Below are positions 4,587 through 62,488 of a DNA stretch of 64,000 bases, one piece after another (position 1 is the first letter of the stretch; each line of letters begins with the position of its first letter). The position numbers and the translations under genes are program-made. The notes under the pieces are model-generated. The model was not told the DNA's origin and searched no databases. It saw only the letters and a program-made list of their open reading frames with translations. Source of the stretch: an uncultured Thermoplasmatales archaeon (GTDB lineage Archaea > Thermoplasmatota > E2 > DHVEG-1). The stretch is from NCBI GenBank assembly GCA_964410735.1, contig CAYPIF010000104.1, forward strand, positions 2,893 through 66,892, read 5' to 3'.

Positions 4587-4743
4587 TTTTTTAATTTAAA
4601 GGGAGAATAGTATGATATGGATCAGATGGATAGGTTCTATAAGAATGATGAACGATCTTCTAATAAACAGAGCTGAAAGGACTGTTGTCACAAAAAAATA
4701 GGCTAGAAAACGTGCTGTTGACCTTCGCACACCCCCTATAGTG

Positions 4744-5913
4744 TTACATCAAATGGTCTTCTAGGCCCAGGATGTCGGTGTAGATGATCTCACAGTCACC
4801 TATATTTGTTTTTCCATTCTTTCCTTTTAGTGTTACGATTATTGCTTTTTTAGGTTTGTACATATCGATGAACGATCGGAGGCTTTTTTCTATCTTGCCT
4901 ATCTCCGTTTGGATCTTTACCTCAACCGGGATGATCTTATTTTCTTTTTCAATGATGAAATCAACCTCGGTTTTTGTCTTTGTCCGCCAGTATCTAGGGG
5001 CATAACCCATTTTTAAGAGCTCTGAAAGTATATAGTTCTCAAATAATGATCCAGTAAGCGTGATATCATAACTTTGTGCGATAGCGTTTCTTAGGCCGGT
5101 ATCGACAAAATAGAGTTTAGGTTGCTTGACGATTTCTTTTTTCTTGTTGGAAAAATACGGATAGACCCGATAGATAAGATAGCTTTTTTCCATTGCATCC
5201 AGATATTTCTTAACGGTCTGAAATGACATGTTCAGATCATTGCCCACGCGGTCATATGATATGATGCCCCCTATTGAATGGGCAAGGTATTTGGAGAATT
5301 CTTCAAGTGATCTGATATCATCGATGGAAAAACTACGGGCAACATCCTTGAGAAGCACGGTATCATATAGGTCCTTTAATATCGTTTTTTTCATCTCGAT
5401 ATCTTCCGTTAGTACGACCTTTGGATATCCACCATATGTGGCATGTTCCCATATCATTCGTTCTAAGATATGATCAGTCAATTCCTTTTGATCTTTTGAT
5501 CGGATAAATTCATTATGTGAAAATGGGTATAACCTGATGATAGATACCCTACCTACAAGGAATGATAGAATGTCTTTAGAGAGTATGACCTCTGAGGAGG
5601 AGGTTACCCAGAGGCGATGGTCTGAATCAACAAGATATTTTAGTTTGCCACCGGCATCCTTGCAATATTGAACCTCATCAAGAACCGATATATCATAACT
5701 TGAAATGTATTGTGTCTCGAACTTTTTAATATCCGTTTCGAACAAGGAGCGGACATCAGGATCATCAAAGAGTATGTAGGAAGAGTCCTGTTTTTCAATA
5801 TGTTTTTTTAGGAACGTGGTTTTTCCGGCTTGTCTTGCTCCTACTAAGGCAATCATGTTATAACTTTTTGTTATTTTATCAAATTTCTCCCATACATCCC
5901 GTTCAACATACAT
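4744..5913 (-). CDS. AAA+ ATPase, AAA_14/DUF4143 family (paralog of 1012..2280)
   Basis: Walker A GARQAGKTTFLKK and Walker B-like VLDEVQ. Architecture matches the first copy. Confidence 0.85.
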   Translation of the reverse strand: MYVERDVWEKFDKITKSYNMIALVGARQAGKTTFLKKHIEKQDSSYILFDDPDVRSLFETDIKKFETQYISSYDISVLDEVQYCKDAGGKLKYLVDSDHRLWVTSSSEVILSKDILSFLVGRVSIIRLYPFSHNEFIRSKDQKELTDHILERMIWEHATYGGYPKVVLTEDIEMKKTILKDLYDTVLLKDVARSFSIDDIRSLEEFSKYLAHSIGGIISYDRVGNDLNMSFQTVKKYLDAMEKSYLIYRVYPYFSNKKKEIVKQPKLYFVDTGLRNAIAQSYDITLTGSLFENYILSELLKMGYAPRYWRTKTKTEVDFIIEKENKIIPVEVKIQTEIGKIEKSLRSFIDMYKPKKAIIVTLKGKNGKTNIGDCEIIYTDILGLEDHLM

Positions 5914-11238: not shown

Positions 11239-11763
11239 TCATTTCATCTTATAGACACTATACTCCATATAGACACCAGGATTTGATGAAGGGTTCTCAA
11301 AATAGATGGTCCAGTTCCCCCGTTTACCTTCACGATTTATCTGGACCAAACAATCCCCATTACACGGTGAATGGGCAAAATCAAATGCACTATACCGGAA
11401 GTCTATCTCCGGAGTAGTAACATAGAGATAGATCCGCTGTTTCTCATCGGTTGTGAGGGACCGACCATCCTCTGTTCTATCCTCAACATGCCAACAGATC
11501 TTCAGATATTCACAACTGCAATTCACATTGAAACAGGTACAAAGCGGAGACTCATACGTCTCTCCAGACCCAAAGAGGAATCGATCAGCTGAATCCACGC
11601 AACATCGCTTATACAACGTGCGGTCATACGGGAAATCATCAACATCATCACAGTAACCATCATTATCAGAGTCCAAACGATCATCTGATATCACTAACGT
11701 AATTGCATAAAGAGCTAAAATGAACAGTATGATCACTACTGCAATTCCAACCTTTTTGCTCAT
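11239..11763 (-). CDS. membrane-anchored Cys-rich protein with one DxDxDG-type acidic repeat
   Basis: N-terminal TM (VGIAVVIILFILALYAITLV), then DSDNDGYCDDVDDFPYD, and multiple Cys residues. Confidence 0.55.
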   Translation of the reverse strand: MSKKVGIAVVIILFILALYAITLVISDDRLDSDNDGYCDDVDDFPYDRTLYKRCCVDSADRFLFGSGETYESPLCTCFNVNCSCEYLKICWHVEDRTEDGRSLTTDEKQRIYLYVTTPEIDFRYSAFDFAHSPCNGDCLVQINREGKRGNWTIYFENPSSNPGVYMEYSVYKMK

Positions 11764-11997
11764 AGATACTATTACCCGCCCATGCTGCCTCTTTATAAAA
11801 CAACACTTATCTAATATACTATATATGCCAAACTATTAAAATGTTTTTATGAAATTATAATTGAAACATTAGTAATTATTTTTAGCAATATTAATAAAAA
11901 TAATCAACATTAATATCTTAACAGATTTGTTTCTCATAACGGTTCTCTAAAAATAATATCAATAATAAAAAATCGTTGAATACACAACACAAGAACA

Positions 11998-12144
11998 AAT
12001 ACTTTCAATGAACCAGATCATCATTTAATAAGGATGATCGACCGATACTATGCCAATAAGACGACTCATCTGGGGGAATTGCCAGCACTGGGTGCAATCC
12101 CATCCACCATCCCTTCCTTCCGCTGGCTCTTCTGCCATGTTTTA
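11998..12144 (+). ncRNA. copy 1 of a 147-nt repeated intergenic module (candidate small RNA; strand uncertain)
   Basis: Aligns by hand with 21182-21328 (75/99 identical in the 5' part). Conserved blocks: AATACTTTCAAT, the AT-rich octamer TTTAATAA (12024-12031), GGGGGAAnTGCCAGC, a GGGTGCA(A)TCCC hairpin, the GCCAGC (12081-12086) / GCTGGC (12122-12127) stem, a CU-rich loop, and a terminal T-run. Confidence 0.45.
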
Positions 12145-12182
12145 TACTAACAACTCATATGATGAAATCAGTATTATCAATT

Positions 12183-13670
12183 TTATCCAGATATAACGCT
12201 ACCAACGGTTCGTCGTATTGCAGAGAAATCAGTATCATTGGCAGTATATTTAGCAAATTCCACGAGACTACAAAGATCAAAACATTGTTTTATTTCTGAA
12301 TAGGGATATTGTTTGGTTTTGAGAAAACGAACAACCTCGTCATTGGTCAGTTCTCTTTTTAGACCGTATTCATAGCTTAGATACAATCGTAATGCTTGTC
12401 CTGCTTTCCCATAAGCAGCCTTATAGAGTTTTTGCTTGTAAAGGTCCTCAGCCTCCAAAAGTAATCGACGTGCCTCACCCTTATAATCAAATGGTTTTTT
12501 AACAAGTGTTTGTGACAGCGGTTCTGCGGATGCTTTTTTTCTCTGATATCGAAGGTAGATATACAGGAACAGAAGAATGATACCAATAAGGAATGGTATG
12601 CTCCAAAAAAGCGGATCAATGTTCTCCTGTTTTGACAGTTGAACATCTTTAAGTTCTTTATCTTCAAATGTTGCAGTGATCGTCGCGGTCTCATTCTCCG
12701 TATTCTCATAGGTTAGTTCCATTGTTGTGGTGTTACCCTGTTGTTCATAGTTCACCGATGTTTGATTATACCCCTCATTTTGCAGTTCCTCAAGATATTT
12801 CTGGAATGTTTCGCTCTGATTGAGGGCATCCATCATCTCTTTTCTATCTTCCGCGGTCTGTTTTTGTACATCCTTAAGTTCACCATCCTCCATAGAACCT
12901 TGAAGCGTTGCGGTCTCACCCTGCTGATTCTCATAGGTGAGATTAAAACTACCGGTATCATTGCTCATTGAATCCAATTGTTTATCGGATAGATTGTATC
13001 CTTGTTCCTTTAGTTCCCGGCTGTAATTCTGAAAATCTTGATTGTTAAGTAGATTCTGTTCAAATTCCTGTCGCTGCTGCTGTTCCTCCTGAAGTTGCTG
13101 TTCGATCTGGTCCTTTAATGCAGAGCTATCCTGGTTCATTTGATTGTTCTGAAGTTTTTCCTGAGGGGTCTGCGGTTGCTGTTGCTGGCTTGGATCCGGT
13201 TGTGCATCCGTTATCTTCTCCGATGAACTTTGCTGTGGGTTCTGTTCATTGTTCATCTGTGACTGGTTACTGACAAAATAGATGTTTATACCATCTAGAG
13301 ATACCTCACGGGTATCAGAATCCTTTGTGTATGAAAATGTGAGAGATACCCGTAACGTCAGTGGGGTATTCGATGTGCCGAAATTCAAGCCAATCGTTTG
13401 ATTCCCTGTTGGGATGCTGTATGTTTGGGATTGTGAATTCGTCGATGAATGCGTGTACCCATTTTGATTGACCTCTTGCGTGATACTATACTGCATCATC
13501 CCATTGATATCATCCCCATATGTATTGTTCATCGTTAAGGGAACGACCGCATCTTGACCGGTTAAGAAATAATAGTCTTTTTGATCCGTCTGAAATGTGA
13601 TATCATCTGCAACAACAGTGGGTATAACAAAGATAACAAATAATATGATGAGAACAAGATATCTTCTCAT
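12183..13670 (-). CDS. secreted/membrane Gln-rich protein with internal duplication and DUF4129-like cytoplasmic tail
   Basis: Signal peptide MRRYLVLIILFVIFVIPTVVA and a Q-rich linker. Two homologous modules: FQNYSRELKEQGYN...LTYENQQGETATLQGSMEDGELKDVQ and FQKYLEELQNEGYN...LTYENTENETATITATFEDKELKDVQ. One TM helix follows, then a C-terminal helical domain. ATGA overlap with the VWA gene. Confidence 0.65.
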   Translation of the reverse strand: MRRYLVLIILFVIFVIPTVVADDITFQTDQKDYYFLTGQDAVVPLTMNNTYGDDINGMMQYSITQEVNQNGYTHSSTNSQSQTYSIPTGNQTIGLNFGTSNTPLTLRVSLTFSYTKDSDTREVSLDGINIYFVSNQSQMNNEQNPQQSSSEKITDAQPDPSQQQQPQTPQEKLQNNQMNQDSSALKDQIEQQLQEEQQQRQEFEQNLLNNQDFQNYSRELKEQGYNLSDKQLDSMSNDTGSFNLTYENQQGETATLQGSMEDGELKDVQKQTAEDRKEMMDALNQSETFQKYLEELQNEGYNQTSVNYEQQGNTTTMELTYENTENETATITATFEDKELKDVQLSKQENIDPLFWSIPFLIGIILLFLYIYLRYQRKKASAEPLSQTLVKKPFDYKGEARRLLLEAEDLYKQKLYKAAYGKAGQALRLYLSYEYGLKRELTNDEVVRFLKTKQYPYSEIKQCFDLCSLVEFAKYTANDTDFSAIRRTVGSVISG

Positions 13671-16649: not shown

Positions 16650-17766
16650 TTAGTGATATGGTTCTGTTGCTGGAGCGGTATCTTTCCCCCAAGTTAGCGT
16701 CCCCTGATAGATACGTTTTGGGACAATGCCGATGAATACTGCTATTTCTGCAGGGATTGGATAGGGCGATGTTGTTCCCCGATAGTTCCTATGAAAAAGG
16801 GTTTTTCGTCCGGATAAGATGTTCCAGCCATCTGAAAGACCGTTCACGGTCAGATACATATACGCTTGTTGTTCATTTTGAAAGATATTGTTATATTGGA
16901 TAATGGTAGATGCTGTTGTTATCTTTCCTGTGAAAAGGGGATCCACAAAGCAACTGATGCCCGTATGCAGGTTCTGCAGGATCATATTGTTTTGTATGAT
17001 GATAGGGCGATACAATGCTGGTGAATAAAGGATGATGCCATTAGTATTCTCAAGTAATTCGTTCTTTTCGATGATGGCTGTTTCTCCAGTTGTGACGAAA
17101 AGCCCAAGCCCTACCTGATTATGCATGAAGATGTCACTACATATGTGATGTTTTTATCCAGTCTACAAGAAAGATGCCGTTTTCATTGTTTTGGATTGTG
17201 TTGTTCGATATGGTTAGATGGCTTGATACTTGTTCTGTTGACATAGTTACATGGATGGAGTAGAATTCGATGTCGTGTATCTTATTTTGATCGATGTGTA
17301 TGTTGGATGAGCCTTTTATCTCGATTCCAATATACTGGTTGTCGATGGCTGTTTCGTAGATATGTATACTATCACGGTTGGCAATATCCATTCCGATATA
17401 TCCTTTTGTGATCGTCATCTGTGTGATGTTGACGTCATTTGAATGGATGGATATGATCACTGTGTTGCCATCACCTGGAAGAAGGGTCGTATCCTTTTCT
17501 TGGCCCGTTAGCGAAAGTGGTTTGTTTATCTCTATAGGTCCAGTGTACAATCCATTTAAAATGATTATATGGTCATATGGTGCTGCGATATCGATGGCAT
17601 CTTGGATATTTTGAAAGAGATGCTGTAAACTACCATCCCAGGGTCCTTCGGTGTTGCCATCATCAACATAATATGTGGTCTTGATGTATTTTGTTGGAAG
17701 AACAGATGGATTTGTTGTTGGAACAATAAGAAGAAGACAGGTGATGATAAAAGTGCTCAGATCATA
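16650..17766 (-). pseudogene. secreted parallel beta-helix (NosD/PbH1-like) protein, frameshifted and lacking an ATG
   Basis: The continuous frame reads LSTFIITCLLLIVPTT...YYVDDGNTEGPWDGSLQHLFQNIQDAIDIAAPYDHIIILNGLYTGPIEINKPLSLTGQ, then beta-helix repeats. It begins directly after a TGA (17767-17769) with no ATG or GTG. The frame changes between about 17137 and 17153, where track ORFs 17137..17550 and 16650..17126 join. Confidence 0.6.
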
Positions 17767-17932
17767 TCACCTATGAGTTATTATCTTGAGAGGTTGTTAA
17801 TAAAGCCTTACTTGTTTATCCTATGTGAAAGTGATAGAAACAAGGCTAACATATGGATGATGGCAAGATCTCTTGTTTAGAGATGCTCATTCCATTCTGA
17901 ATGATTCAACCATTTCGCTTTCTGAAAGTATC

Positions 17933-18487
17933 TTAGGTATTCGCTCGATGTTTTGAACCTTGGACGAAAAAGGTGTAAGAATATGATTGCTGTTTTCTGT
18001 TCATTTCAATGTTCACGGTTTTATGTTTCTTTACACCTGAGGGGGAAAGGAGTTCGTATTTCTCCATTTCTTTGTTCAAGGTGCGGTGAAGTTTCTTTTG
18101 ATAGGAACCAATCCCTCTTCGTTCTAATATTTTATCAATGAAGATGACTGACCATAAGGAGATATAAATCAAGAATCCAATCTCGAATTTTCCTACACCC
18201 ATTACTGCTCATAGGATGGCAAATACCCATATACTTGCAGCTGCGGTGAAACCAAAGATATGATCCGTAGTTTCTATCAATGCACCGGATCCACGAAATC
18301 CAATACCAGTGACGATTGCACTGAACAAGGGAAGGGGAGTATCCGGGTTGAGAAGTATGGCGGTAATGGAAAGACCGCAGGAACCTATTGAGACGAATAT
18401 GAAGGTACCAACGCCTATTGGTTTGTGAGATCGTTATCTTTCAATCCCAAAGATAAATGCTAGGATGAAGACGATAAGGAATCTCAT
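17933..18487 (-). pseudogene. mgtC: MgtC/SapB-family membrane protein with two in-frame stops
   Basis: Hand translation in a single frame gives MRFLIVFILAFIFGIER*RSHKPIGVGTFIFVSIG...SAIVTGIGFRGSGALIE...FGFTAAASIWVFAIL*AVMGVGKFE... The stops are TAA 18434-18436 and TGA 18209-18211. The GxER..K.xG and GIGF.G.G motifs are characteristic of MgtC. Confidence 0.7.
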
Positions 18488-18587
18488 GATTATACTAGTT
18501 AGTTCCACCGTCCCCAAACATCAGATCTAGCACAATTTATTAATAAAACATAGTAAAGAACATCATACTCAACAAGGAAGCTAGGAT

Positions 18588-18872
18588 TCATTGATCGTTC
18601 TTTTTGATCCTTCGTATGATCTGATCGAATCCTCTGACGACTCGTTCAAAAGATGTATTCTGATCTGATATACCCATGGTTGCTAGTCCTTTCGACAGCT
18701 CAAAAACAGCTAATTTCTGATCGTCCTTTGACTTAAACACATGCTGTGGGCCTACACTGAGTAGCTCATAATCGATAAATGCCTGTGGTTCATCTTTCTC
18801 ATTTTTACTACCCATAAATGTCCGCACTTGCAATAAGAACGCATGAAGCTGGATCAATTCATCTTTCTGCAT
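18588..18872 (-). CDS. small conserved archaeal protein (UPF0058-like, tentative)
   Basis: 94 aa. MQKDELIQLHAFLLQVR...HVFKSKDDQKLAVFELSKGLA resembles the UPF0058 pattern as I remember it. Confidence 0.4.
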   Translation of the reverse strand: MQKDELIQLHAFLLQVRTFMGSKNEKDEPQAFIDYELLSVGPQHVFKSKDDQKLAVFELSKGLATMGISDQNTSFERVVRGFDQIIRRIKKNDQ

Positions 18873-19262
18873 CCAAAACCCAGTAATAGTATATATTTCA
18901 AGTATATAAAAATTGATGCCTTTGAACTGTATGAAACAGCATTGGGCGGGGCATTGTTTTACATTTTTTTCTGCATGTTTAATTAATTTTGAAGAAAAGT
19001 AGCAATCTTATATTATTCTCGATCATTCAAAATAATGGTTTTTTTTGATACAATTGTCCCGTTAGAAACAGTAAACATGACCATATAAAACAAGTGAAAT
19101 AATTTTTAAAAAATTATATTGATTCTATTGAAACTTTTGTTACATTTTAAAAATTAAAAACCCATAAATATCATATATATCATACTGCTTACTCGATAAA
19201 TAATTTATGAAAAACTCATTCAATAGGTTCAATTAATAGTAACACGAGTAGTTGCCGTAGGG

Positions 19263-21083
19263 ATGGTAGACATGGATCAATCCATTCAAAAAGATATGAT
19301 GGGGAACAATTTAGAACATATTCTAAATGATGTTGAAGCAATCATTTTTCTTTATGATCTAAATGACCATTTTATATTCGTCAATACCGCTTTTGCTGAA
19401 TCGATTGATAAGAAAGTGGGAGATATCATAGGCAAGTCCGTATTTGAATTATTTCCCCAGGACCATGCAGAAAAATACTCCAGGAACAATAGGATGGTTA
19501 TAGAAACAGGATCACCATCACTTGACATACAAGAGAAGATGTTTACAAAAAAAGGTATACGGTGGGTTAAAACAAATAAAAAACCGTTCTATGATGATAG
19601 AGGAACACTTCTAGGCATCCTAGGAGTTACAACAGATATAACCGATCAGAAAAAGGCAGAAGAAAAATTAGAGAAAAGTGAGAAACAACTGGAATTGAAG
19701 CTCAATAGCCTCCTTTCACCAGAATGCACCATCGACGAGGTAGATTTCAGCAATATCATCAACAGCAAGGAAATCCAATTGATGATGAATGATTTCTATC
19801 AACTGACAAATATCGGGATGGCCATCACCGATATGAAAGGAAATATCCTCGTGGCCACCGGATGGCAGGACATTTGTACAAAGTTCCATAGGATCCACCC
19901 TCAAACAAATAAAAACTGTATAGAAAGTGACATCTACCTTTCAGAACATGTAAAACCAGGTGAATACGTCGAATATAAATGTAAGAACAACCTATGGGAC
20001 ATCGCGACACCAATCATCATTTCTGGTAAACGGCTGGGAACCTTATTTCTTGGTCAATTTTTCTATACCGATGAGGAAGTGGACTATCAGTTTTTTGAGA
20101 GGCAAGCCGAGAAATATGGTTTTGATAAAAAGCAGTATCTTTCAGCGCTTGACCGTGTTCCACGATGGGATAGGGAAAGAGTAGCTTGTGTCATGGATTT
20201 CTATTCAAAACTTTCTGTGATGATCTCCCAGCTGAGCTATAGCAACCTGAAACTAGCTAAAATGGTCCAACAACAAAAGAAAACAGAGACCGAATTAAAC
20301 GAGGCGAATCATAAGTTAAAGAACATGAATGACATCCTTGAACGAACCGTTGAAGAAAGAACATCTGAGTTGACAAGAGCGTTAAAACATAAGGACGAGT
20401 TCATACATCAACTCGGTCATGATCTAAAAAATCCGTTAAGTCCCATTATCCATCTACTTCCAGTTTTGGAGAAAAAAATACCTGATGAGGATGTTAAAGA
20501 GATATATGAAGTGATATCAAGAAATGCTATTTACATGAAGAATCTCGTTAAAAAAACACTTAATCTAGCAAATCTGAACTCATCTCATACCATCTTTACT
20601 TTTGATACTATCACCTTACATGAATCTGTTGATGACGTGATTCAAAAAAATTCACTATCGTTCTCAGAGAAAAATCTCAACATAATCAACAATGTATCAA
20701 ATGATATCCTTGTCAATGCAGATAAACTTCTACTGGATGAACTCCTCACCAATCTCTTTGACAACGCAATAAAATATAGCGGTGAAGGATCAACGGTTAC
20801 AGTTCATGCGCTTCAAAAAGAAACATCAATTACTGTCTGCGTACAAGATAATGGGAAAGGAATATCCAAAGACCAGATCCCCCATCTTTTCGAAGAGTTC
20901 TACAAAGCAGATTTCTCAAGACATGATTTTGATAGCAACGGACTAGGCCTTCCTATTTGTAAAAGGATTGTTGAGAAACATGGTGGCCGTATATGGGCAG
21001 AAAGTGATGGCATAGGAAAAGGAACTCGCTTCTTCTTTACCCTTAAAAAGAGCGGTAACCACCATCAACAGGAAAAAATGTAA
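19263..21083 (+). CDS. sensor histidine kinase (PAS + PocR-like + HisKA + HATPase_c)
   Basis: PAS-like N-terminus, Cys/His-rich sensory segment ICTKFHRIHPQTNKNCIESD, H-box FIHQLGHDLKNPLSP, and G-boxes DNGKGI and GLGLPICKRIVEKHGGRIWAES. Confidence 0.85.
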   Translation: MVDMDQSIQKDMMGNNLEHILNDVEAIIFLYDLNDHFIFVNTAFAESIDKKVGDIIGKSVFELFPQDHAEKYSRNNRMVIETGSPSLDIQEKMFTKKGIRWVKTNKKPFYDDRGTLLGILGVTTDITDQKKAEEKLEKSEKQLELKLNSLLSPECTIDEVDFSNIINSKEIQLMMNDFYQLTNIGMAITDMKGNILVATGWQDICTKFHRIHPQTNKNCIESDIYLSEHVKPGEYVEYKCKNNLWDIATPIIISGKRLGTLFLGQFFYTDEEVDYQFFERQAEKYGFDKKQYLSALDRVPRWDRERVACVMDFYSKLSVMISQLSYSNLKLAKMVQQQKKTETELNEANHKLKNMNDILERTVEERTSELTRALKHKDEFIHQLGHDLKNPLSPIIHLLPVLEKKIPDEDVKEIYEVISRNAIYMKNLVKKTLNLANLNSSHTIFTFDTITLHESVDDVIQKNSLSFSEKNLNIINNVSNDILVNADKLLLDELLTNLFDNAIKYSGEGSTVTVHALQKETSITVCVQDNGKGISKDQIPHLFEEFYKADFSRHDFDSNGLGLPICKRIVEKHGGRIWAESDGIGKGTRFFFTLKKSGNHHQQEKM

Positions 21084-21181
21084 AACATTCTATCTTTTTT
21101 GCGATTAGTACAAGCATAGTTTATCCCTTTTAAAAATCTAGACGAAAGATAAAGAGTAATAGCTAAGATAAATCAAAGATG

Positions 21182-21328
21182 AATACTTTCAATCAACCCA
21201 ATTATCATTTATTAAGGATGAACGACAGATATACGATTAACAGGACGATAGATACGGGGGAACTGCCAGCAAAGGGTGCATCCCACTCTTTCCTCTTCCT
21301 CAAGCTGGCATTTCTGCCACATTTTTTA
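21182..21328 (+). ncRNA. copy 2 of the 147-nt repeated intergenic module (candidate small RNA; strand uncertain)
   Basis: Same conserved blocks as 11998-12144: the octamer TTTATTAA (21208-21215), the GCCAGC (21265-21270) / GCTGGC (21304-21309) stem, a GGGTGCATCCC hairpin, a CU-rich loop, and a T6 run. Lies 95 nt upstream of glpK. Confidence 0.45.
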
Positions 21329-21423
21329 AATGAACTATCCAACAAGTACAAGGAAAGATTATATTTGACGATAGGATTAAACATCAATTTAGTATAAGAT
21401 ACAACACAGAGGTTGCATAGTTG

Positions 21424-61828: not shown

Positions 61829-62488
61829 ATGAAAATATTCATCGACACAGCAGACCTAAAAGAAATTGAAGAGATCGCAAGCTGGGGCATCCTTGATGGA
61901 GTCACCACAAACCCCACACTTGTAGCAAAAACAGGGCTTAGTTTTGATGAGATCATAGAAAAGATATTCAAACTAGTGGACGGCCCGATAAGCTTAGAAG
62001 TTGTCAGCGAAGACGCAGAAGGAATGGTCAAAGAAGCAAAAGGACTTGTAAAAAAAGTAAAACCAGAATACCAAAAGAACGTTGCGATAAAGATACCAAT
62101 GACCACCGAGGGGCTAAAGGCAGTGAAAATACTTTCAAATGAGAACATCCAGACGAATGTGACCCTTGTCTTTTCCGCCAATCAAGCACTTCTTGCCGCA
62201 AAGGCAGGCGCAAGCTTTGTCAGCCCATTCATCGGAAGGCTCGATGACATCGGTCAAGAAGGAATGCAGATAATAGAAGAAATAATGGAAATCTTTACCA
62301 ACTATGACATACCAACAGAGGTCATTGTCGCAAGCATACGACATCCCATACATGTCATTGAGGCCGCACGGATAGGAGCGGACATCGCAACCATACCACC
62401 AGGGATAATTAGGAAAATGGCAAACCATTCTCTCACCGATGCTGGCATTCAACAATTCCTGAAAGACTGGGAAAAAGTAAAAAAATAG
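61829..62488 (+). CDS. tal: transaldolase (short, fructose-6-phosphate aldolase type)
   Basis: [13 protein letters not shown]...GVTTNPTL and active-site Lys context VAIKIPMT. Confidence 0.92.

Follow-up and report, generated by a model that had tools for sequence, protein, structure and literature searches.

The 64,000-nucleotide (nt) stretch of DNA considered here (the window), part of contig CAYPIF010000104.1 of an uncultured Thermoplasmatales archaeon, carries two similar intergenic modules, copy A (11998-12144, +) and copy B (21182-21328, +), and raises the question of what kind of element they represent. Our analysis indicates that A and B are very probably members of a genuine non-coding RNA (ncRNA) gene family. 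The explanation that we consider best overall, and hold with about even confidence, is that they are promoter-bearing, paralogous sibling small RNA (sRNA) genes of an uncultured Thermoplasmatota clade, whose loop would pair in trans with messenger RNAs (mRNAs). The module was noticed from the letters of the window alone, and this original prediction described two copies of equal length and about three-quarters identity. Alignment by blastn confirmed it, giving 76% identity over ~142 nt (E 1e-14) with both copies on the + strand, a similarity far beyond chance. The copies lie where the prediction had placed them, every conserved block that it listed was found in both, and two blocks that it did not mention were added, namely box AATACTTTCA at the 5' edge and GACGA ~12 nt before the G-run. 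The description as a two-copy module holds inside the window, as blastn of either copy against all 64 kb matched solely the other copy, and a covariance model of the family matched A and B only; beyond the window, many further members exist.

The search for further copies that the prediction had called for yielded 21 full and 2 truncated (L029 and L040) distinct copies with a common promoter-to-stem geometry, all located on low-GC archaeal contigs, one of which is titled Thermoplasmata archaeon. The initial search used an exact 19-base pattern spanning the 5' stem strand and the hairpin, and is thus biased towards exact matches. Among 185,579 species genomes, it gave one true low-GC match, locus L005, in a Thermoplasmata archaeon metagenome-assembled genome from Guaymas; the other matches fell in an unrelated GC-rich bacterial coding stretch (Burkholderiales and similar taxa) and were discarded. 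In the JGI metagenomes, 16 further low-GC loci were found, while a seventeenth, L028, proved to be the same contig as L005. Additional copies were obtained by synteny, through orthologs of the gene for a 495-amino-acid (aa) protein adjacent to copy A, a route independent of the search pattern. No member was found in viral contigs by two relaxed patterns and a covariance model search.

The layout of the copies is fixed. In 21 of the 23, the box stands at offset 0, an A/T octamer at ~26, GACG at 61-66, and the G-run at 73-79. Box AATACTTTCA is followed by a spacer of 16-17 nt and the octamer (TTTAATAA, TTTATATA, ATATATAA and similar); then, after ~27 nt, come GACGA, ~8 nt, GGGGGAAYTGCCAGC, 3 nt, GGGTGCATCCC, a C/T-rich stretch, GCTGGCATTTCTGCCA and usually a T-run, at least four T occurring within 14 nt past the stem in 16 of 21 copies. 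The C/T-rich stretch, referred to below as the pyrimidine loop, is 10-30 nt long across the family and contains 3 G in 323 nt. The RNA predicted from this layout would be ~61-98 nt long, with a single-stranded 5' tail of ~17 nt. Some members deviate: the small hairpin is gone in L078 and altered in L075, and L037 lacks the box and has GGCG in place of GACG. Locus L037 also contains a decayed second copy (4660-4739, -) in tandem, ~140 nt upstream of the intact one and carrying ~45 nt of the downstream flank; the stem of this decayed copy, UGUCAGC / GUUGGCA, retains its pairing through G.U only on the strand of the element. The genes next to the copies vary in identity and orientation and include those for peptidases, oxidoreductases, a nitroreductase, a methyltransferase and an HD hydrolase. 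With the box and TATA-like octamer present in 21 of 23 copies, the T-run in 16 of 21, and such varied neighbours, the copies have the sequence hallmarks of independent transcription units.

In copy A, the box (11998..12007, +), present at offset 0 in all but two of the 23 family copies, marks the 5' limit of conservation, and it is here that homology to the related-species contig L066 begins. The TATA-like octamer TTTAATAA (12024..12031, +) starts 26 nt past the box start, as does an A/T-rich 8-mer at ~26 in nearly all copies. The corresponding elements of copy B are the box at 21182..21191 (+; L066 homology begins at 21181) and the octamer TTTATTAA at 21208..21215 (+), in the same geometry. 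The archaeal TATA box consensus is TTTAWATA, and the octamer is interpreted as a TATA box because it matches this consensus. Transcription is inferred to start near A12055 and A21240, ~30 nt past the first octamer base, at a purine following a pyrimidine. By itself, AATACTTTCA is not enriched in the window (15 matches at no more than one mismatch, versus 9.7 expected), and a third AATACTTTCA at 62128, inside a transaldolase-like coding region, was dismissed as a chance occurrence.

The predicted RNA of copy A (12055..12143, +; both ends as predicted) is ~89 nt long, scores 79 bits with covariance model R1 (E 1.7e-20), and folds at -24.9 kcal/mol with a terminal stem. It comprises GACGA in the predicted single-stranded 5' tail (12060..12064, +; GACG at offset 61-66 in box-bearing copies of alignments A2 and A6), stem block GGGGGAAYTGCCAGC forming the 5' strand of stem P1, GGGGGAATTGCCAGC (12072..12086, +; paired with 12122-12136), a small GGG...CCC hairpin GGGTGCAATCCC (12090..12101, +; GGGUGCAUCCC in most copies, local hairpin predicted), a G-less C/U-rich loop ATCCACCATCCCTTCCTTCC (12102..12121, +; one substitution in the L066 ortholog, identical in L073), and the 3' strand of P1, GCTGGCTCTTCTGCC (GCTGGC..TTCTGCC; 12122..12136, +), assigned by folding and family pairing. 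A TTTT run (12140..12143, +) is a candidate archaeal terminator. Most copies of alignment A2 share the hairpin GGGTGCATCCC unchanged, and copy A has one extra A. For copy B, an RNA of ~87 nt is predicted (21240..21327, +; 98 bits with model R1, fold -27.3 kcal/mol, z -2.27). Its parts, placed by family alignment, folding and family pairing, are GACGA in the 5' tail (21245..21249, +), stem block GGGGGAAYTGCCAGC forming P1 5' strand GGGGGAACTGCCAGC (21256..21270, +), hairpin GGGTGCATCCC (21274..21284, +), G-less C/U-rich loop ACTCTTTCCTCTTCCTCAA (21285..21303, +; identical in the L066 ortholog), P1 3' strand GCTGGCATTTCTGCC (GCTGGC..TTCTGCC; 21304..21318, +) and a TTTTTT run (21322..21327, +) matching the family T-runs. 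The G+C content is 40% in the window versus ~50% in the predicted RNA parts. Comparative evidence supports the proposal of a novel family of structured RNAs of ~85 nt with their own TATA box and an oligo-T end.

How old the family is can be judged from orthologous sites. Contig L066, from a related species, has the same gene order as the window, with proteins 66-93% identical and genes 70-85% identical in DNA, and holds both copies at the same positions. Copy A is identical to its L066 ortholog at 85 of 89 positions (95.5%) and to the L073 copy at 94.4%, and the DNA identity of the adjacent 495-aa gene is 77% for L066 and 69% for L073. Copy B matches its L066 ortholog at 81 of 88 positions, with no difference from the G-run through the loop. 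Overall, the RNA parts are 92-96% identical between the window and related species, versus 69-85% for neighbouring genes. The paralog-specific loops are also kept between the window and L066, the loop of B being identical and that of A differing at one base, and homology to L066 starts exactly at the box (11998 and 21181); beyond the module, the intergenic DNA cannot be aligned. The A-type copy 94.4% identical to copy A is found in L073/L074 beside the gene that is 69% identical; more diverged copies lie at or near the site of copy A in L072 and L075-L077, the position of copy A itself being kept in L073 and L072, and in L078/L079 the copy is located elsewhere on the contig. No copy was found in the glpK neighbourhoods of more distant relatives (L069-L071, 56 kb). 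Taken together with a relic in L064/L065 (see below), this pattern of presence and conservation shows a family confined to one clade, predating several speciations and under strong purifying selection, single copies of which can be lost. As to the host, the prolyl-tRNA synthetase encoded in the window shares 87% identity with proteins named 'Candidatus Thermoplasmatota archaeon', and the DNA of the window is also present as part of JGI metagenome contig 3300001533 MLSed_10000174.

These positions bear on the possibility of a DNA-level repeat, either a miniature mobile element or a dispersed cassette that serves for protein binding or as a promoter. Signs of duplication do exist: L024, L031 and L041, three contigs of one metagenome, end inside identical copies, which is how assemblers behave at repeats, L037 has its decayed tandem duplicate, and L029 and L040 are truncated. 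Moreover, the two stem strands also make a near-perfect inverted repeat at the DNA level. However, the AATACTTTCA and TTCTGCCA ends of the module are not inverted repeats and no target duplications were seen at its edges, as would be expected of a miniature inverted-repeat transposable element. A mobile-element origin had been named in the original prediction as the finding that would speak against it; no transposase or integrase genes were found in 20 flanks. In addition, the sites of A and B have stayed fixed between species with 66-93% protein identity (that of A also in L073 and L072) and appear old, the paralog-specific loops are kept between species, and one strand is preferred, judging by the G.U pairs and the T-run. 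We regard a DNA-level repeat as quite improbable.

The fold common to all copies is a single long, imperfect stem in which GGGGGAAYUGCCAGC pairs with GCUGGCAUUUCUGCC, and inside which lie the small hairpin and the unpaired pyrimidine stretch. As a minimal hairpin variant, L078, in which the stem closes a loop of just 7 nt, also speaks for the stem. Standard pairs occupy 98% of cells in the alignment of 17 copies and 96% in that of 20 copies, versus 35-63% for slid partners. Covariation, suggested as a check on the structure, is scarce. Two compensatory pairs occur in one lineage, L075/L077, where AAG/CUU has replaced AGC/GCU at the top of the stem and the helix continues into GGG/CCC, and two pairs are changed on both sides in alignment A6; otherwise there are none, the stem being near-invariant, with one G-C pair replaced by G.U in L021/L038. 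One G.U pair is invariant, and the other strand would give A.C at this position. Folding z-scores range from -1.2 to -2.6 for the + strand and from -0.2 to -0.4 for the - strand, the clearest TTTAWAWA-type octamers are oriented for the + strand, and the T-run lies at the + strand 3' end. On these four grounds, the + strand is favoured as the one transcribed.

Could the module encode a small protein instead, as a 37-aa open reading frame (ORF) on the - strand over A and a 59-72-aa ORF on the + strand over B might suggest? Frames are open on both strands of A and B and have been annotated by public gene callers, and in the 5' part of the + frame several differences between A and B are conservative or synonymous. 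However, the spacing between the two conserved blocks equals 0, 1 and 2 modulo 3 across copies, so no reading frame links both blocks. The + frame of A and B is lost in other copies, in which the same stretch is a diverged promoter spacer; conservation, at 92-96%, is at the nucleotide level, with no third-position pattern; open frames are to be expected in stop-poor C/U-rich sequence; and no Pfam match was obtained. Two tidy ORFs (NTFN.P..HL.RM.DRY...GELPA.GA on the + strand and C.T.CWQFP on the - strand) were also rejected, since their frames are broken in other copies. A small protein is accordingly the least credible explanation, and we consider it extremely improbable. Public small-ORF calls (37, 59, 72, 56 and 51 aa) lie in or beside the module at 12028-12138 (-) and 21179-21397 (+) of the window and at L060 602-715 and 9795-9974, L062 448-666, L074 5731-5901 and L075 11515-11670. 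Those that overlap the RNA, in window A, window B and L074, are most likely mis-annotations, as other family members do not preserve their frames. The 51-aa call in L075-77 is ~400 nt from the covariance model match.

Copy B is located between a PAS-PocR histidine kinase gene (19263-21083, +) and glpK-glpA-glpB (21424 onward, +), and might thus be taken for a cis-acting leader or attenuator, in particular a glycerol-responsive leader of glpK, in which GCUGGCA would pair either with the upstream UGCCAGC or with the downstream UGCCA. It shares the strand of glpK and precedes this gene by 92 nt, its sequence UGGCA-UUUC-UGCCA might fold into a small hairpin as an alternative, and a same-strand gene is downstream of a few other copies too. 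However, many copies, A and that of L005 among them, are followed by the 3' end of a convergent gene, and the genes downstream of the copies are mutually unrelated, which is not the pattern of a riboswitch or 5' leader. Furthermore, a block outside the RNA, CAAGGAAAGATTATATTTGA (21349..21368, +), ~55 nt upstream of glpK and conserved in the window, L066, L064 and L065, is the probable promoter of glpK itself, judging by its position and conservation. Since this promoter-like block separates copy B from glpK and has survived in L064/L065 despite the decay of the element there, copy B appears to be a unit separate from glpK, and a leader function is very improbable. In L064 (186-694) and L065 (2399-2884), toxin-antitoxin genes (PemK; ParE with RHH) occur upstream of glpK in place of the PocR kinase. 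An RNA gene directly after a same-strand histidine kinase gene was seen twice, in the window (19263-21083, with copy B) and in L005 (7440-8000, with its own copy). A link to the upstream kinase was considered and set aside; the two kinases are 33% identical in the ATPase part, and the arrangement is probably a coincidence.

Copy A lies between a divergent gene for a 174-aa protein (11239-11763, -) and the 3' end of the convergent 495-aa gene (12183-13670, -), the last gene of a MoxR / DUF58 / BatA-vWA operon. The 495-aa protein has no Pfam domain; its orthologs, 42-45% identical, occur in Thermoplasmatota, ANME-2, Woesearchaeota and others, and some are named HEPN domain or DUF4175 by the sources. 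The A-type RNA gene is a conserved convergent neighbour of this gene in the clade.

Known classes of RNA do not account for the module. None of the 4227 models of Rfam 15 matched the window at the gathering threshold. With E up to 10, nothing was found over the element in L005, and window positions 11900-12250 gave only two chance sub-threshold matches to animal long non-coding RNAs (E 1.7 and 4). ARAGORN detected no tRNA or tmRNA genes in the window. A C box (RUGAUGA) was found in 0 of 21 copies and a D box (CUGA) in 0 of 21 within the last 35 nt, which speaks against a C/D box sRNA, and ACA directly 3' of the stem, as in H/ACA sRNAs, occurs in 2 of 21. Mimicry of the 16S rRNA 3' end, which we take to read GGGGAACCUGCGGCUGGAUCACCUCC, was rejected, with no match to small-subunit rRNA models at E up to 10. 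Since no description was found in the literature either, the RNA family is new with respect to Rfam and the searchable literature, while its kind, a structured promoter-bearing archaeal sRNA and possibly a sibling family, is known.

If the members are sibling sRNA genes, the following scheme can be proposed. Box AATACTTTCA, ~55 nt upstream of the predicted start, would be the probable site of a dedicated common regulator. The TATA-like octamer 26 nt downstream would direct initiation ~30 nt past its first base, yielding an RNA of ~61-98 nt. The stem and tail would provide a constant scaffold and plausibly a handle for a protein. The pyrimidine loop would be the paralog-specific working part, pairing in trans with Shine-Dalgarno-like GGAGG/GGAAGG sites of mRNAs and lowering their translation or stability, so that different siblings would have different targets. 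What the sequences show is the family with its geometry, its extreme conservation at orthologous sites, a fit to the stem, the strand, and that no reading frame is conserved; we infer that the module is transcribed, where the RNA begins and ends, what the box does and that the RNA acts in trans by base pairing. GGAGG or GGTGA does precede the start of several genes in the window, and the loops are predicted by folding to be unpaired. A precedent in archaea is provided by sRNA41 and sRNA154 of Methanosarcina mazei, which mask ribosome-binding sites (PMC5867862). Pairing of the loop with purine-rich mRNA sites as the mechanism is a tentative proposal, to which we give somewhat less than an even chance.

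Several observations weigh against the scheme. In 17 copies, no pair of the stem is changed on both sides, the stem hardly varying at all, and this invariance could reflect a sequence-specific constraint at the protein or DNA level rather than pairing. The run of four T is missing in 5 of 21 copies. In L064/L065, all that is left of the copy upstream of glpK is a decayed relic, which shows that single copies can be dispensed with. The anti-Shine-Dalgarno role suggested in the original prediction gained no support: the loops of A and B matched the 53 start regions of the window no better than coding-internal controls (Mann-Whitney p 0.5-0.9), nor better than shuffled loops did, in a comparison of low power confined to one 64-kb window. 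Finally, L078 keeps its promoter, tail and stem, with the hairpin and the C/U-rich loop replaced by 7 nt; the loop therefore cannot be the only functional part of the family.

Some of these observations would fit an ncRNA that functions within a ribonucleoprotein particle: a protein would recognise the stem by its sequence, and the loop would recruit additional proteins or hold substrates in place, in the manner of Y RNA/Ro60, an RNA sponge or a scaffold. Across 20 copies, neither strand of the stem varies, nor do its two mismatches, and the loop changes freely, as is typical of a protein recognition site; the terminal stem, the paralog-specific pyrimidine-rich internal loop and the oligo-U end make up a Y RNA-like architecture; the loop-less L078 keeps the stem; and the target test of the loops was negative. 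On the other hand, no match to the Rfam Y_RNA model or any other was obtained at E up to 10, and the 17-nt 5' tail is absent from Y RNAs. The vWA protein encoded beside copy A matches vWA_Ro60 weakly (E 4e-4, below the cut-off), as any vWA domain might. We regard such a particle, the main rival explanation, as possible but rather doubtful. A bolder version, which we think unlikely, is a modular RNA system new for archaea, in which the GACGA tail and the GGGGGAAYUGCC/UUUCUGCC handle would be read by a putative lineage-specific protein, the pyrimidine cassette would be exchangeable, and the siblings would be co-induced via AATACTTTCA. On the same reading, and with the same reservation, the RNAs would belong to a Y-RNA-like or guide-like class of ribonucleoproteins and would not be ordinary antisense regulators.

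Several features unrelated to the module were noted in the course of the analysis. A NosD/beta-helix gene is split in the window into two parts in different frames (16650-17126, - and 17137-17550, -), corresponding to one 294-aa gene in L066 (5013-5897); as the split is also present in assemblies L060/L061, it is probably a real frameshifted pseudogene. In L005, a tRNA (5431-5571, -; 42.5 bits) has a long insert that scores as C/D box sRNA sR3 (27.7 bits, below the threshold) and resembles an intron-encoded C/D guide, which is known for archaeal tRNA-Trp. In L075, an intein carrying a LAGLIDADG homing endonuclease domain (Pfam) interrupts the SRP54 gene (17536-20655).

Promoter-bearing sibling sRNA genes would be of interest for several reasons. 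RNA-based regulation in uncultured sediment Thermoplasmatota is almost unstudied, and the family adds a case. We presume from the peptidase-rich gene content of the window that its hosts are relatives of protein-degrading benthic groups. The family is tractable, with a sharply defined promoter and shared box, a scaffold 92-96% conserved and a loop conserved between species. The covariance model is ready for annotating related genomes and would remove the recurrent mis-annotation of ORFs of 37-72 aa. The family further allows two questions to be addressed in a concrete system: by what means sibling sRNA regulons are built in archaea that lack Hfq-type systems, and what protein recognises the invariant stem.

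Among known systems, sRNA41 and sRNA154 of M. mazei are similar in being structured intergenic archaeal sRNAs with their own promoter and with loops able to pair with purine-rich ribosome-binding sites (PMC5867862). They belong to Methanosarcinales rather than Thermoplasmatota and share no sequence or model similarity with the new family, which differs in having its pyrimidine stretch inside one long terminal stem, in being multi-copy, in its shared upstream box, and in the negative result of the target test. LhrC1-5 of Listeria, RoxS/RsaE and the streptococcal csRNAs are bacterial sibling sRNAs with C/U-rich seeds. Like the family described here, they occur as several paralogs in a genome, with a conserved scaffold that carries unpaired C/U-rich motifs able to pair with the Shine-Dalgarno sequence, and with a common regulator site in each promoter; unlike it, they have Rho-independent terminators and short repeated UCCC/CCCC seeds in hairpin loops, in contrast to the 10-30-nt G-less internal stretch, and none of them is matched in Rfam by the new RNA. 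Y RNAs, which differ in the absence of the 17-nt 5' tail and whose Rfam model does not match, are alike in architecture only: a length of ~80-110 nt, a stem formed from both ends, a paralog-specific pyrimidine-rich loop, a 3' oligo-U and several paralogs per genome. HgcC, HgcE, HgcF and HgcG, reportedly identified by Klein et al. in 2002 as GC-rich ncRNA genes forming G+C islands in AT-rich archaeal genomes, have families in Rfam, which give no match here, and resemble the module as a G+C-rich structured island (~50% GC here) in AT-rich intergenic DNA. Judged by its sequences, the new family stands out by its conservation, fixed promoter geometry and modular loop.

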